Source of the DNA: Oscillospiraceae bacterium
Lineage (GTDB): Bacteria; Bacillota; Clostridia; Oscillospirales; Oscillospiraceae
Length of the DNA: 39,596 nucleotides
Reading direction: 5' to 3'
NCBI GenBank assembly: GCA_031278515.1
Contig: JAITKI010000033.1
Coordinates: 1-39,596 of the forward strand
The position numbers were made by a program, and so were the translations under genes. Positions 7,585 through 30,871 of this stretch are shown one piece after another; within the stretch, counting starts at the first letter, position 1, and every line of letters begins with the position of its first letter. The notes beneath the pieces are model-generated. The model searched no databases, was not told the origin of the DNA, and saw only the letters and a list, made by a program, of their open reading frames with translations.

Positions 7585-7607
7585 CATGACTGTCGCCGGA
7601 CGAATTG

Positions 7608-7669
7608 CGTTTGTCACGGCCGGAGCCGTGACAAACGAGTCACGGGAGCTTGGATCTCGCCGCGCGCGG
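7608..7669 (-). repeat. hairpin repeat copy 1 (stem CGTTTGTCACGGC / GCCGTGACAAACG) plus conserved 32-nt tail
   Basis: 13-bp perfect stem 7608-7620 / 7625-7637 with loop CGGA. The tail AGTCACGGGAGCTTGGATCTCGCCGCGCGCGG (7638-7669) matches the reverse complement of 16162-16193 with 3 mismatches. Confidence 0.8.
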
Positions 7670-7709
7670 GCGTACGCGCGGTTGCGCCCCAGCGGTTGCT
7701 TTCCAGATT

Positions 7710-15918: not shown

Positions 15919-16024
15919 GAATCCGCATCCGGCGAGATTTTTTTGTCCGCCGCAGCACCGTCGCGGCAAGAGAGACGCCCGGGCGCGGTCCTCGCGCGCG
16001 TCCCGCAGAATATTTTCGTTTGTA

Positions 16025-16046
16025 GCAGTTTTCGCCCCTTCGTCCT
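16025..16046 (+). repeat. partial (half) copy of the hairpin repeat
   Basis: TTCGTTTGTAGCAGTTTTCGCC resembles the left arm of copy 4 (TTCGTTTGCAGCGGTTTCGCC, 28906-28926). No matching right arm follows. Confidence 0.5.
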
Positions 16047-16161
16047 TTTCGCCGCAGGCGAAAATAATTTTTGCGGAGAAGTGCGTCTCGTGCGACGATG
16101 CAAAAATTGTAATATTTCGCGTTTTCCGGGGATTTATTCCTCGGAAAACGCTCTTTGCGAG

Positions 16162-16222
16162 CCGCGCACGGCGAGATCCAATCTCCCGTGACTCGTTTGT
16201 GATGGCGAAGCCATCACAAACG
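16162..16222 (+). repeat. hairpin repeat copy 2 (tail + stem CGTTTGTGATGGC / GCCATCACAAACG)
   Basis: Tail at 16162-16193. 13-bp perfect stem 16194-16206 / 16210-16222 with loop GAA. Confidence 0.8.
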
Positions 16223-16244
16223 AAATTATTCCCGCAGGACTTTC

Positions 16245-16273
16245 TTGCGAATCCGCGCGGTTTGCCGTATAAT
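16245..16273 (+). promoter_or_regulatory. sigma-70-like promoter (cassette copy 2) upstream of dCMP deaminase
   Basis: TTGCGA (16245-16250), 17-nt spacer, TATAAT (16268-16273). The -35 starts 22 nt after the hairpin. Confidence 0.55.
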
Positions 16274-20105: not shown

Positions 20106-21797
20106 TTATACACCCGGCGCTCCCGAAATACAACTATCCGGCGCTCTCGTGTCCGGCCCGGCGCGGGCGCGAGCCAAGAGCAGCATACACCGATAATAGT
20201 CGCGCTCGCCGTCCGCGGCGCTCTCGATGAGCGCGCGGCAGCGCTCGGGCGGTCGCAGGTAATCCGAGCGCAGCGCGCCTCGCGCCAAAAGGCGTTCGGC
20301 GTACCGCGCCTGGCGCGCGTCGGCGCCCTGTCGGCGGAGAGTTTGGAGCACACGCTCCGACAGCGCCTCGTATTCCGGATTGTAAAACCGGCCGTCTTTC
20401 GCGTCGTACCTAAGTCCCCGCGCGCGGATCTGGACGGCGCCGCCGCGCGCCTCGGCCGGCCATCTCCCGCCCGGCGGCGCGTCGGGTTCCGGAAGCGCGT
20501 CGGGACTCTCCGACGTACCGGATACGTATATGTAGTATATATTCTTTATCTCGCGGTCTCCGCCGCGCCGCAGCACGCGTCCTATACGCTGTATGCGCTG
20601 ACGCGCGCCCGTGCCGGCGGAAAGTATTATTCCAACGTCCGTATCCGGTACGTTCAGCCCCTCGTCAAGCGCCCGGCAGCACACTATGACGGGGCGCTCG
20701 CCGTCCCTGTAACGCTCCAGCGCGCGCGCCTTTTCCGCGGCGTCCATGTTGCTGTGATAGCGGCATATCTTGCCGGGATACAAGGCGTCGAGTTCGCCGT
20801 ACACGAAATCGACGGTTTCTATGCGCTCGGCAAAAACTATTATGCGGCCGTCGGTTATGAGTTCTTTTACAAGCTCGACCGCGCAATCGGCGCGCGCGCG
20901 GGCCAGGTGTAGAATCTCCTTGCGGCGTATATACAGCAGCGCCAGTTGACGCGCGAGCTCGCCGGTCTTGTCAGCGCGGCCTTGCAATTGCCGCACGCCC
21001 TGTATAAAGGCGGCGCCGCGCTCGCCATTCAGCCGCGGGACGATCTTTACCAACCGCGCGCGCGTTATCGCTATCCTGTCCGTATACGAATCGTAATCCG
21101 CGCGCTCCTCGGGGGAAAAATCGACGGCTACGCTGAACACCGCGCAGCCGGAGGTCACGCTGTCGGCGGCCGCCTCCGATATGCCATATCTGAAAATCAC
21201 GCCGCCCAGCGCGGGCGCGACGGCCGTATCAAAGCCGTCGCACTCCGGCGTCGCCGACAGCCCCAGCGCGAAGTAGCGCTCCCGCGGTACGCGCGTGAGA
21301 AAATCGAAAACGCGCGCGTTGACGGCGCTCCCGAAATGGTGGCACTCATCGCATATGAGCAGTACGGAGCGTCCCGCGTCCGTATCGCGGAGTATATGAC
21401 GCGACACGCAAAAGCGCGCGGTATTGAGTACGTATATCACAAACGGTTTTTCCGGGGACTCCTTGACCGCTCCGCAATAGAGACCGATATCCCCGCGCGA
21501 AACGCCCAGGAAACGCACGATATCCGCCCGCCACTGGTGGGCGAGAAATACCTTCGGCACTACTATCCTCACGCGCAGCGACGTCTTGTCGCGCGTCTTC
21601 GCGAGCCGCTCGATCGCGGCCAGCGCCAGCAATGTCTTTCCCGCCCCCGTGGCGACGCCGGCGACGCCCTTGCACCCGTTTTCGAACCAGCGCGCGAGAC
21701 ACTCGTCCTGCCACGCGTACAGCGTCACGCCGCGCAAAGAATACACGTCCGGAAGCCCCTCCCCTCGTATGCGTTTGCAAACACGCAACGGTTGCAA
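20106..21797 (-). CDS. SF2 helicase (ResIII/DEAD-like core) with Arg-rich C-terminal extension
   Basis: Motif I GVATGAGKT, motif II DECHH, motif III SAT, motif VI QRIGRVLRRG. The last ~120 aa form an Arg/Ala-rich tail with no recognisable domain. The start is ambiguous: TTG at 21797, or GTG at 21746 with GGAGGGG about 10 nt upstream. Confidence 0.85.
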   Translation of the reverse strand: MQPLRVCKRIRGEGLPDVYSLRGVTLYAWQDECLARWFENGCKGVAGVATGAGKTLLALAAIERLAKTRDKTSLRVRIVVPKVFLAHQWRADIVRFLGVSRGDIGLYCGAVKESPEKPFVIYVLNTARFCVSRHILRDTDAGRSVLLICDECHHFGSAVNARVFDFLTRVPRERYFALGLSATPECDGFDTAVAPALGGVIFRYGISEAAADSVTSGCAVFSVAVDFSPEERADYDSYTDRIAITRARLVKIVPRLNGERGAAFIQGVRQLQGRADKTGELARQLALLYIRRKEILHLARARADCAVELVKELITDGRIIVFAERIETVDFVYGELDALYPGKICRYHSNMDAAEKARALERYRDGERPVIVCCRALDEGLNVPDTDVGIILSAGTGARQRIQRIGRVLRRGGDREIKNIYYIYVSGTSESPDALPEPDAPPGGRWPAEARGGAVQIRARGLRYDAKDGRFYNPEYEALSERVLQTLRRQGADARQARYAERLLARGALRSDYLRPPERCRALIESAADGERDYYRCMLLLARARAGPDTRAPDSCISGAPGV

Positions 21798-21815
21798 ACG
21801 CGTTTATCCCTGAAA

Positions 21816-21860
21816 AATCATTTCGTTTGTGATGGCGAAGCCATCACAAACGAAATGATT
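21816..21860 (+). repeat. hairpin repeat copy 3: 45-nt perfect palindrome
   Basis: AATCATTTCGTTTGTGATGGC (21816-21836), loop GAA, GCCATCACAAACGAAATGATT (21840-21860). The 21-bp perfect stem lies between the divergent helicase and the three-gene operon. Confidence 0.9.
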
Positions 21861-21875
21861 CCCGAAAATTTATCC

Positions 21876-21905
21876 TTGACAGCCGCTCGCGCGGGGCGAT
21901 ATAAT
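21876..21905 (+). promoter_or_regulatory. consensus sigma-70 promoter (cassette copy 3) for the three-gene operon
   Basis: TTGACA (21876-21881), 18-nt spacer, TATAAT (21900-21905). The -35 starts 23 nt after ACAAACG. The operon ATG is at 21981. Confidence 0.6.
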
Positions 21906-21980
21906 TGCGGGAAATGTCTGAATATCCGGAGCTACACCTAATTATACGGCGTAACGCTGAATTATGAAAGAGGTTTTTTT

Positions 21981-22772
21981 ATGATCTATGAAGCGTTTTA
22001 CGACGACATCCTTTCCGTCGCGGAGGAACTGAAGGAACAATTGTCGTCCCAGCAAAAGCTTGTCAAGCGTCTGATGAAGTGTGTGGGAAACGGCGACCTG
22101 AAAGCCGCCGCGCGCGAACTCCCCGCCGCGAACGCGGCCGCCGACGTCTGCGCCCGTTCGATAGCCTCGATTACCGAAAAAATCGAGGCGGCCGACATGT
22201 TCGCCTATCTCCGGTCGGGGGACTTCGCGCGGCAGCTTGTCAACATGTGCCGCGAGTACGGAATTGACATCAAAGGCGAGGGAAATTCCTATGAGGTCTT
22301 CCCGTACCGCCTGAAAATCGATCCGCAGAACGCGGAGCTTCAAATCAACGGCAAAAAAGCGCTTGGTCTGCGTCCGCGCGCCGTGGTTGAGGACCTGCAA
22401 AAGAAGCGCGCGCACCTCCTGTCCGCCTCGTTCAACCCCGCGCAGTACGCCGCCGAGCTGTCGTCGGCCTATGATCTCGCGCTTCTCGCCGCGTCCAAGG
22501 GCAAAGCGTACGCGCCCGACGCCGACGTGCATCTCACCACGCTCCACAGGTATTTGACGCCGATGCGCCGTTTTCGGCGCGACTACGACCCGCAGAGCTT
22601 CGCGTTCGACATCGCCCGGCTGTACGACGCGGAGACGGACGCGCCCGTGGTAATCGGCGACGGTCGCCGCGTACATTTCGGGCCGGGCCGCGATAACAGC
22701 AAAGCGATACGCATCCTCGACGCGCTCGGGAGCGAGCGGTTCTTGTCAACCGTCCGGTTTTACAGGCCGTAA
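21981..22772 (+). CDS. hypothetical protein (operon gene A), no family recognised
   Basis: ATG 21981 with GAAAGAGG about 7 nt upstream. 263 aa with a predicted helical N-terminus (LSVAEELKEQLSSQQKLVKRLMK). The stop lies 3 nt before the gene B ATG. Confidence 0.75.
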   Translation: MIYEAFYDDILSVAEELKEQLSSQQKLVKRLMKCVGNGDLKAAARELPAANAAADVCARSIASITEKIEAADMFAYLRSGDFARQLVNMCREYGIDIKGEGNSYEVFPYRLKIDPQNAELQINGKKALGLRPRAVVEDLQKKRAHLLSASFNPAQYAAELSSAYDLALLAASKGKAYAPDADVHLTTLHRYLTPMRRFRRDYDPQSFAFDIARLYDAETDAPVVIGDGRRVHFGPGRDNSKAIRILDALGSERFLSTVRFYRP

Positions 22773-28790: not shown

Positions 28791-28899
28791 GATATATTGC
28801 ACGAATGGCGGAATTTGTCGTAATTTGTAGGAATTGTAACAACCCTGCGCCGCTCCAAACCCGCGCGATTCGCCGCACCCTCCCCGGTGAGTTAATCAG

Positions 28900-28944
28900 A
28901 ATCAATTCGTTTGCAGCGGTTTCGCCATCACAAACGAATTGATT
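28900..28944 (+). repeat. hairpin repeat copy 4 (degenerate upper stem)
   Basis: AATCAATTCGTTTG (28900-28913) pairs perfectly with CAAACGAATTGATT (28931-28944). The inner 17 nt CAGCGGTTTCGCCATCA keep the right upper arm GCCATCA but not the left one. Confidence 0.75.
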
Positions 28945-28959
28945 CAAATTTCTGTATAC

Positions 28960-30871
28960 AACCTAAAACCCTGATAATAGTTACTCAAAACGCTATTGCC
29001 TGATGATGCCGAGCCTTGATAGGAATAAACGGTCGCGTTTAATTGTTTCTGTTTGCCATCTACATTTGCTCATGTTCGTGTAGACCGTTGTTTCTTCGAT
29101 GCAGTCAAACCAAGCAAACAACCGCTCAATCGACATGCTGTTTAACCAGTTGAGAAGCGCCTTTTCTTCCTTCAAATTTTGCTCGGTGTCATGTAACGGA
29201 TCGCCGTTTTTTATAGCAAGAGTCTTTTTTAAATTCGAGATTGCCTGATGCAGATATTCATGGTAACAAAGCGCGACGAACTGGCAAAAAAACCGGCCGC
29301 TCAGACTATCCGGATACCATACCCTTGTTCGATTGCCGTCGACATATTGCTTATCCATGCGGAAGTGTTCCTCTATCTTTTCCCTCCGTCGGTACTTCCG
29401 CAACGCATCCCAGACATCCAGCGGCGCATTGGAAACAAGGATAAAACAACCTGCAAAACGGGTCGCATCCTGAAATGCCTCCTCATTGTATGTGATAGAT
29501 AAACCGCCTCTGGTGTTTCTGATCATGAGATATTTGTCTGCAATTCGTCGCTCACCTTCAGATATTGGTTGTACTTCGGCTTTCAGATGTTCTTGGACTT
29601 TTCTGATATCATCAGCCAGGGAGGCCGTATCGCATTCGGCCTTGGCAGCGTTTCTGTACAAGTAAAGATATATCCGATGTTCTTCTGTTACCACATCCCC
29701 TTTCGAGATGTTACTGCGGCTGCGCTCTCTGACCCGCCGGAAATTATGTTGGGTCGCGATTGCCATTCCGTACACGCTCGGGTCAAAAGGACAGTGGTTG
29801 GACAACTGACTGATAGAATTCAATATCCCATCGAACTCAGACTTAATCCATGAAGCATTCAGCTTTCCAGCGACTAAAAACTTAATATGGCTGCGTATGA
29901 GTGTCAGCATATTGTCTTCGGAATAGAATCCTGCATCCATTACAAACATTGGCTTTTCCATACCGAAGACGGAGAGTTGCTTGCTGGCGTTGATAATAGA
30001 AATGACATCTGGTATATTTCCCGGTTGTCTCGCGTAAGCAATCGGCTGTCCTGTTTCCAAGCAATACTGCGTTAAAAGTTTCACGCTCTTTAGTCCGTCA
30101 TCGCTTTTATTATAGCCGTATCTTGCTTCGATCTGGTTCTCTGAATACGACGAGACGGTAGTTGAGTCAAATGCGATGGAAGACTTGGATGGCACACGGT
30201 CAGCTCTCGCACGGAAGAATTTCTGTTGCATGTCGGCATCCGTGCCGATCGCTTTCATCAAGGCATAACATCCGTCTTGAGATATGCCGTCCCGATAGGG
30301 GATATCGTGGTTTATCTGCCATTCTTCGATATAAGGGATGGTCTTGCCTGGGTTCGCATTCCAGTAGCGGGCAATTGAAAGAATTTTCTCGGCGGTCGTG
30401 CGATCGGTAGCGTGGAGAAGATCCTGATCAATGCCGGATTCGCGGCCAATCCATTCCAGGATGCAAGCAACGCCAATCCTCTTGCTTGATGCCAATTTCG
30501 GTACGGATGCTTTTGCCCTGCGGGGTCTCGTTGAAACCATTTCTGTCTTTCCAGCCGGAATTTTACCAACCAAATGACTGCTTATAACTTCATTGAAGCG
30601 TTTTTCGGGGTTGTATTTGGTCGTTCTCTCATAAATGTAAATATCTCCATTGCCGCGTTTGACATTGACTTGCCCGGTTTTTGGCTCTAACGAAGCTTTT
30701 TTTGGCATGATGTCCCTCCTGATTTGAGTTACTATATTATATAATAGTTACTCGAATAAATCAAGAGGGAAAATACCGTTAAATGCCGAAAATAAACCAT
30801 ATTTACTGACTAATGAAGTTGAAATATCCTTTGAGGTCGTTTTTGAGTGAGCATTGTCAGGGTTTTAGGTT
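28960..30871 (-). mobile_element. insertion sequence, IS4 superfamily (IS1634-like), about 1.9 kb
   Basis: Imperfect terminal inverted repeats: AACCTAAAACCCTGATAATAGTTACTCAAAACG (28960-28992) versus the reverse complement of 30838-30871, AACCTAAAACCCTGACAATGCTCACTCAAAAACG (first 15 nt identical). One transposase gene. Visibly more AT-rich than the flanks. No target-site duplication found. Confidence 0.85.
28993..30708 (-). CDS. DDE transposase (IS4/IS1634-like)
   Basis: ATG 30708 with an AGGAGGG SD. DDE candidates FDSTTVSSYS and VMDAGFYSEDN, plus the YREK-type signature YRRREKIEEHFRMDK. 571 aa. Confidence 0.85.
   Translation of the reverse strand: MPKKASLEPKTGQVNVKRGNGDIYIYERTTKYNPEKRFNEVISSHLVGKIPAGKTEMVSTRPRRAKASVPKLASSKRIGVACILEWIGRESGIDQDLLHATDRTTAEKILSIARYWNANPGKTIPYIEEWQINHDIPYRDGISQDGCYALMKAIGTDADMQQKFFRARADRVPSKSSIAFDSTTVSSYSENQIEARYGYNKSDDGLKSVKLLTQYCLETGQPIAYARQPGNIPDVISIINASKQLSVFGMEKPMFVMDAGFYSEDNMLTLIRSHIKFLVAGKLNASWIKSEFDGILNSISQLSNHCPFDPSVYGMAIATQHNFRRVRERSRSNISKGDVVTEEHRIYLYLYRNAAKAECDTASLADDIRKVQEHLKAEVQPISEGERRIADKYLMIRNTRGGLSITYNEEAFQDATRFAGCFILVSNAPLDVWDALRKYRRREKIEEHFRMDKQYVDGNRTRVWYPDSLSGRFFCQFVALCYHEYLHQAISNLKKTLAIKNGDPLHDTEQNLKEEKALLNWLNSMSIERLFAWFDCIEETTVYTNMSKCRWQTETIKRDRLFLSRLGIIRQ

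Follow-up and report, generated by a model that had tools for sequence, protein, structure and literature searches.

The closest described counterparts of the repeat reported here are the MITEs of prokaryotes, among them MITEAba12, Chunjie, RUP and QMITE, which are small and non-coding, carry TIRs and short target-site duplications (TSDs), are dispersed as intergenic copies, come in several length classes with common ends, and spread in lineage-restricted bursts (PMC10969869). A 2024 review of MITEs covers promoters located inside the elements, sites for IHF and effects at the level of RNA, and describes no MITE that sits at a fixed distance from a promoter (PMC10969869). The Correia elements of Neisseria (CREE/NEMIS) are likewise abundant, approximately 100-150 bp in length and situated just upstream of genes, where they influence transcription and can give rise to RNA hairpins; their promoter hexamers lie inside the element and TA is the duplicated target (PMC10969869). 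Highly repeated extragenic palindromes are also characteristic of the REP/REPIN sequences and their RAYT proteins, but REPs have neither TIRs nor TSDs and rely on a Y1 transposase. Finally, a number of mobile elements find a safe haven next to a transcription signal, including class C group II introns that insert behind terminators, IS1397 and ISKpn1 that insert into REPs, and Ty3 and the Dictyostelium element TRE5 that insert at Pol III promoters. None of these elements is known to target sigma-70 promoters of bacteria at their upstream edge, and a literature search returned no precedent for a mobile element that inserts at a constant distance from the promoters of its host.

The family that we describe here shares with the prokaryotic MITEs each of the features listed above, and differs in having no known parent IS and in inserting at a fixed 14 nt from host -35 hexamers. 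Unlike the situation in Correia elements, the promoter associated with this family lies outside the element and past the TSD, is unique to each site, and is present in relatives that have no element. In contrast to REP/REPIN sequences it possesses both TIRs and TSDs, and no associated RAYT was found. Like the safe-haven elements, it keeps a constant distance from a generic type of transcription signal and is not tied to any one locus, an arrangement that avoids gene disruption.

The DNA analyzed (hereafter the window) consists of the 39,596 nt of contig JAITKI010000033.1 from an Oscillospiraceae bacterium, whose own genome (G000) is a 2.0-Mb draft in 161 contigs. The minus strand of the window encodes an SF2 helicase (20106-21746) with ResIII and Helicase_C domains, the 546-aa product of which is PbeA-like in PADLOC. 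Divergent from this gene on the plus strand is gene A (21981-22772), which encodes a 263-aa protein of no Pfam family and is the first gene of an operon with two BrxD/SngB-like ATPase genes that lie downstream on the same strand. We place the start of the helicase at the GTG at 21746 and not at the TTG at 21797, because the former is preceded by the SD sequence GGAGGGG, gives an N-terminus that aligns with the homologue in locus L011, and is the start selected by an independent gene call. Therefore, the intergenic region extends from 21747 to 21980.

Within this interval the sequence-only reading had described a perfect palindrome at 21816-21860, and the two arms (21816-21836 and 21840-21860) are indeed 21 nt each and 100% complementary around a 3-nt GAA spacer. 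By our own estimate (39,596 x 4^-21), such a repeat would be expected by chance in 39.6 kb with a frequency of about 1e-8. The promoter proposed for gene A, TTGACA-18 nt-TATAAT at 21876-21905 on the plus strand, is also present and agrees with the consensus at 12 of 12 positions. Given its predicted transcription start at ~21912, the palindrome centre at 21838 is consistent with the distance of about 74 nt that had been put forward. A TATAAT is found on the minus strand at 21941-21946, as had been noted, and forms part of a probable helicase promoter located inside the gene A leader (21941-21968; TTCATA at 21968-21963, 16 nt, TATAAT at 21946-21941; 10/12), with a predicted start at ~21934. Two promoter-like sites occur in the region versus 0.3 expected from shuffled sequences. 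What requires correction is the spacing: the palindrome had been placed 23 nt from the promoter, a value obtained only by counting from the core ACAAACG, whereas 15 nt separate the palindrome end at 21860 from the start of the -35 hexamer at 21876, and the gap is 14 nt when measured from 21861, the true end of the element described below. The segment between the element and the helicase SD (21771-21805) contains the word TTGCAAAC twice, together with two short dyads, GCGTTTGCAAAC and AAACGCGTTT.

The palindrome is one of a great many. Searching the 2.0-Mb genome with the 21-nt arm at up to 3 mismatches returned 147 forward and 151 reverse matches, compared to none for the reversed control, and alignment of their contexts indicated that most of the apparently single arms are the ends of a longer conserved element. 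All size classes of this element are bounded at both ends by the 15-nt TIR GAATNNTTTCGTTTG, and the 490 TIR matches in the genome correspond to ~245 elements. Pairing of TIRs revealed classes of 47/48 bp (n = 43), 119 bp (n = 5), ~224 bp (n = 55), ~250 bp (n = 22) and ~329 bp (n = 11). The consensus of the long form is 224 nt with its TIRs, the family is characterized by a subterminal hairpin, and 278 such hairpins are found in the genome. A perfect 5-bp TSD flanks 39 of 141 elements and a perfect 6-bp TSD a further 8, compared to 1 of 141 in a shifted control. Median identity among the 47-mers is 91.5%. Two main stem types, TGATGGC/GCCATCA and TCACGGC/GCCGTGA, are two compensatory pair changes apart; hairpins of the second type are asymmetric, with a C.A mismatch on one strand (TCACGGC/GCCGTAA) and a G.T(U) wobble on the other (TTACGGC/GCCGTGA), and full pairing is therefore achieved on one strand only. 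Submission of the locus region and of a long-form copy to Rfam gave sub-threshold chance matches or none. In 92 of the 161 contigs a contig end lies within 300 nt of a family TIR, indicating that the family fragments the assembly and that its copy number is underestimated. Breaks in the MAG assembly are due mainly to this repeat.

At the helicase/gene A locus, the element is a 47-bp short-form copy (21815-21861; AAATCATTTCGTTTGTGATGGC-GAA-GCCATCACAAACGAAATGATTC) that holds both 21-nt arms, is 98% identical to other 47-bp copies, and has the terminal repeats AAATCATTTCGTTTG and CAAACGAAATGATTC. To its left is the TSD copy CTGAA (21810-21814) and to its right CCGAA (21862-21866), identical at 4 of 5 positions. 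Removal in silico of the element and one copy of the TSD reduces the intergenic region from 234 nt to 182 nt, and an empty site would read ...tttatccCTGAA joined directly to aatttatccTTGACA. Three more copies are located in the window. A 224-bp long-form copy at 16008-16231 has the perfect TSD CCGCA/CCGCA and an outward promoter, TTGCGA-17-TATAAT, that begins 13 nt past its end. A truncated long-form copy at 7598-7670 has the variant stem GTCACGGC/GCCGTGAC, and its outward promoter, TTGTCG-17-TATAAT (7584-7556, minus strand), begins 14 nt past its end. The third is a 47-bp short-form copy at 28899-28945, and exactly 14 nt past its end begins an unrelated IS4/IS5-like element (IRs 28960-28990 and 30841-30871), at the point where the -35 hexamer of this copy would start.

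An independent assembly of the locus is available from Logan for run SRR14710901. It contains an identical helicase and an identical gene A on two contigs, both of which break inside the hairpin. When these contigs (L097 1-30 and L099 1-25) were compared with 21836-21866 of the window, the helicase-side arm proved to be of type 1, as in the window, with an identical flank. In contrast, the gene A-side arm is of type 2 (C-CCCG-GCCGTGACAAACGAAATGATTC; stem GCCGTGAC, loop CCCG) and is joined to an identical flank. The mismatch in arm type between the assemblies reflects either a strain-level allele difference or assembly ambiguity at the insertion site.

Both congeners contain dozens of copies at 72-86% identity, as revealed by a similarity search; an exact-word search had missed these diverged copies and had suggested a species-specific burst. 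No family copy was detected in 119 other genera of the host family, and the element was absent from PLSDB plasmids, INPHARED phages and JGI metagenome contigs. Judged by these searches, the MITE-like family is confined to the host genus. We also looked for a parent element. The assembly (89% complete, 161 contigs) yielded no autonomous element or transposase with family TIRs, nor any long multi-copy segment that starts at a TIR. The DDE transposase encoded in the window (28993-30708) is ruled out as the parent, as its IS has unrelated 31-nt IRs, and pairs of TIRs located 1.5-3.9 kb apart are ruled out as autonomous elements given that ordinary host genes lie between them. Neither the window copy nor any other copy yielded an empty site, and therefore the case for mobility is made by the TSDs, the copy number and the size classes. 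Taken together, the elements are 47-329 bp in length and non-coding, with TIRs, a TSD of constant length and many dispersed copies, and the family has the structure by which prokaryotic MITEs are defined, save for a parent IS and an empty site, neither of which was found.

In order to determine what the locus looks like elsewhere, we collected relatives of gene A. A search of 200 genomes of the host family gave no match, as did gene A used as a single-protein query against genome contigs. An alignment query against genome contigs yielded 282 gene A relatives among its matches; 80 loci were kept and gave, with the window, 81 control regions. Homologues are found in many Bacillota, in Synergistaceae, in Coriobacteriales and in others, and a divergent helicase homologue lies upstream of gene A in 70 of the 80 kept loci. 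Among the 81 control regions a long inverted repeat is a feature of the window only, with arms of 21 nt, whereas the runner-up has 13 nt and the most frequent arm length is 5-6 nt, and the 13-nt-arm repeats of other loci sit at unrelated positions. In the seven closest loci (L011, L017-L021 and L025), gene A is preceded by TTGACA-N17/18-TAAAxT and a palindrome is lacking, indicating that the promoter is ancestral and that the element inserted next to it. The leader between promoter and ATG of one gene A homologue (L098 185-265, 66% identity) contains tandem units of ~11-12 nt (catcgaaagtg / catcggaagta).

The minus-strand promoter is conserved as well. The window and all seven closest loci (8/8) have a perfect minus-strand TATAAT at a distance of 36-48 nt from the ATG of gene A, mostly with a TTCAxx -35 hexamer at 16-18 nt and often with a TGn extension, and on account of this conservation it is likely the helicase promoter. 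A helicase 5' UTR of ~188 nt (21747-21934, minus strand) is predicted on this basis, and the earlier suggestion that the palindrome would fold as a hairpin in that leader gains support. In the eight closest loci the gene A and helicase promoters are arranged face-to-face, such that the predicted transcripts overlap by ~20 nt. This conserved arrangement suggests that mutual transcriptional interference may be the real control logic of the system.

Given these data, we take the palindrome, with a probability of about 0.88, for a non-autonomous transposable element of 47 bp that inserted with a 5-bp TSD 14 nt upstream of the pre-existing -35 hexamer of gene A. One point against this conclusion is that the TSD of the window copy is not perfect. 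Its consequences for the helicase/gene A locus are presumably incidental to the insertion of a mobile element.

The distance of 14 nt is not peculiar to the window copy. Outward from the TIR, 87 of 264 ends have a TTG at offset 14, versus a background of ~5 per offset. For 62 of the 264 ends a strict promoter begins at that offset and for another 10 at offset 15, with no other offset exceeding 4. Likewise, the gap between TIR and TTGAC is 14 nt in 73 cases and 15 nt in 12, and no enrichment of such gaps was seen one or two helical turns further out. Ends with and without the hairpin are alike in promoter spacing. The flanking promoters are site-specific sequence outside the element and past the TSD. 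A -10-like hexamer follows ~69% of the element flanks with a TTG at offset 14 or 15 (72 strict promoters among ~104 ends), compared to 7.9% of TTGAC genome-wide and 40% of those outside long ORFs, the last figure depending on a crude mask because long ORFs in some frame cover 96% of this G+C-rich genome. Viewed from the side of the promoters, a family TIR lies 13-15 nt upstream of 19% of consensus-like promoters genome-wide that match at 10/12 positions, 32% of those at 11/12 and 30% of those at 12/12. The repeat effectively marks strong promoters in its host. In the two congeners, where gaps of 6-24 nt were allowed, 16 of the 26 matches have a gap of 14 nt.

Of 127 elements, 18 have a TTG at the expected offset from both ends, 66 from one end and 43 from neither; approximately 20 with both would be expected under independence. 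A simple model of one promoter per insertion does not predict such independence of the two ends, and the signal at both ends hints at either a palindromic target with two half-sites or a preference for divergent promoters. Association with promoters is the same in young copies, those with a perfect TSD, as in old copies with a decayed TSD (40% versus 45% of ends, p = 0.52), which argues that the association was set at insertion and was not accumulated by selection. A promoter next to tRNA genes provides an orthologous pair. In the window (16008-16273) it is flanked at an offset of 13 nt by the 224-bp element with TSD CCGCA, whereas in G002 (C80; L013 2200-2400, minus strand) the same promoter is flanked at an offset of 14 nt by a ~112-bp member with a different stem and the TSD (C/A)AACG. 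This promoter looks like a hot spot that was struck independently in two species. The spacing data favour choice of the target site at integration over random insertion followed by selection, and over a promoter carried by the element. It is important to point out that survivorship inflates the association with promoters, as intergenic insertions alone persist, and the elements with no correctly spaced TTG at either end count against promoter targeting.

Several other explanations of the palindrome were weighed against insertion of a mobile element. The sequence-only reading raised the possibility of a control element acting on both sides of the system, in effect the site of a dimeric regulator that coordinates the helicase gene with the gene A operon. 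Such a role would suit a perfect dyad that lies between divergent genes, within the predicted leader of the helicase, with its centre ~74 nt ahead of where gene A transcription is predicted to begin. That proposal had to be given up: the arm is present ~300 times in the genome and not at one or a few sites, it belongs to an element with TIRs and TSDs, none of the 80 other homologous control regions has it, and the seven closest of them keep both promoters, the locus contains no regulator gene, and the repeat family is restricted to a genus whereas the system spans several phyla. We consider a dedicated operator highly improbable. Scarcely credible is a REP/REPIN-type element mobilized by a RAYT (Y1) transposase, despite the abundance of this intergenic, hairpin-forming repeat and the presence of one Y1_Tnp gene in the genome, because TIRs and 5-bp TSDs are not products of Y1 transposition and the sole Y1 gene (C126:13152-13514) is IS200-like and lies between unrelated hairpins with no adjoining family copy.

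Two further alternatives accept the repeat for what it is and assign it a function. An RNA-level element, namely an attenuator, terminator or processing site selected at this locus, could reside in the helicase leader, within which the palindrome is predicted to fall. Its RNA folds into a stem of 22-24 bp at -32 to -34 kcal/mol, the whole predicted UTR has a z of -4.3, the hairpin is followed on the minus strand by UUUUUC, and a perfect duplex of such length is of the size cleaved by RNase III. However, a scan of 21500-22300 returned 0 terminator-like sites, the U run belongs to the flank of the window copy and not to the family, the consensus of which has no T run after the hairpin and does not qualify as an intrinsic terminator, the helicase leaders of relatives have no such hairpin, and the same element is found at more than 200 unrelated places. 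Selection for such a function here is therefore quite unlikely. Alternatively, an element of mobile origin may have been kept as a UP-element-like or factor-binding site that modulates gene A as part of a genome-wide regulon. The TIR positioned 13-15 nt upstream of 30-32% of the best consensus promoters and the two compensatory stem changes between subfamilies fit with this idea, as does the TIR end AAATTATTC, which would lie at ~-59 to -51 and so would overlap the distal UP-element subsite of E. coli, reportedly described by Estrem and colleagues in 1998. Against it are the lack of secondary peaks at helical repeats, the equal association of young and old copies, the third or so of elements (43/127) without an adjacent TTG at the expected offset, the gene A promoters of relatives that do without the element, and an identity between copies that is far above what is usual for factor sites. 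We regard exaptation of this kind as unlikely. The window element, then, is not a REP/REPIN, a Correia-type element, a terminator or a system-specific operator.

Returning to insertion of a mobile element as the preferred reading, a mechanism can be proposed. A DDE-type transposase supplied in trans would cut the two strands with a 5-bp stagger, 9 bp ahead of the -35 hexamer. This putative enzyme may read the -35 region alone or by way of promoter-bound RNA polymerase, possibly through two half-sites. The point of insertion would be a safe landing site, with the core promoter left intact. At the gene A promoter, the A/T-rich end of the TIR would displace the native sequence upstream of -50, and its UP-like position could make insertions harmless or mildly stimulatory. 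In the other direction, a hairpin of -32 kcal/mol would be added to the predicted helicase 5' UTR, where, on the basis of the folding model, an effect on the stability, processing or read-through of the helicase mRNA is possible. In its general form, the proposal is that the transposition machinery recognizes sigma-70-type promoters, as the -35 or as polymerase-bound DNA and maybe as two half-sites, and integrates, precise to the single nucleotide, 9 bp plus a 5-bp TSD upstream of the -35, such that the promoter edge serves as a generic safe haven and about a third of the host's strongest promoters, including that of a defence-like system, have become colonized. We give this proposal an even chance of being correct.

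For the helicase/gene A locus, these findings remove a tempting regulatory model and leave the conserved face-to-face promoter pair as the candidate control logic. The palindrome is a recent passenger at this locus, an ordinary copy from a MITE family that is unusual in apparently seeking out promoters. If promoter recognition is confirmed, landing at a fixed number of bases upstream of the -35 hexamer would be a mode of target choice new to bacteria. The family would then mark promoters naturally in an organism that has not been cultured, and could become a tool or model for the study of how mobile DNA and compact genomes coexist.
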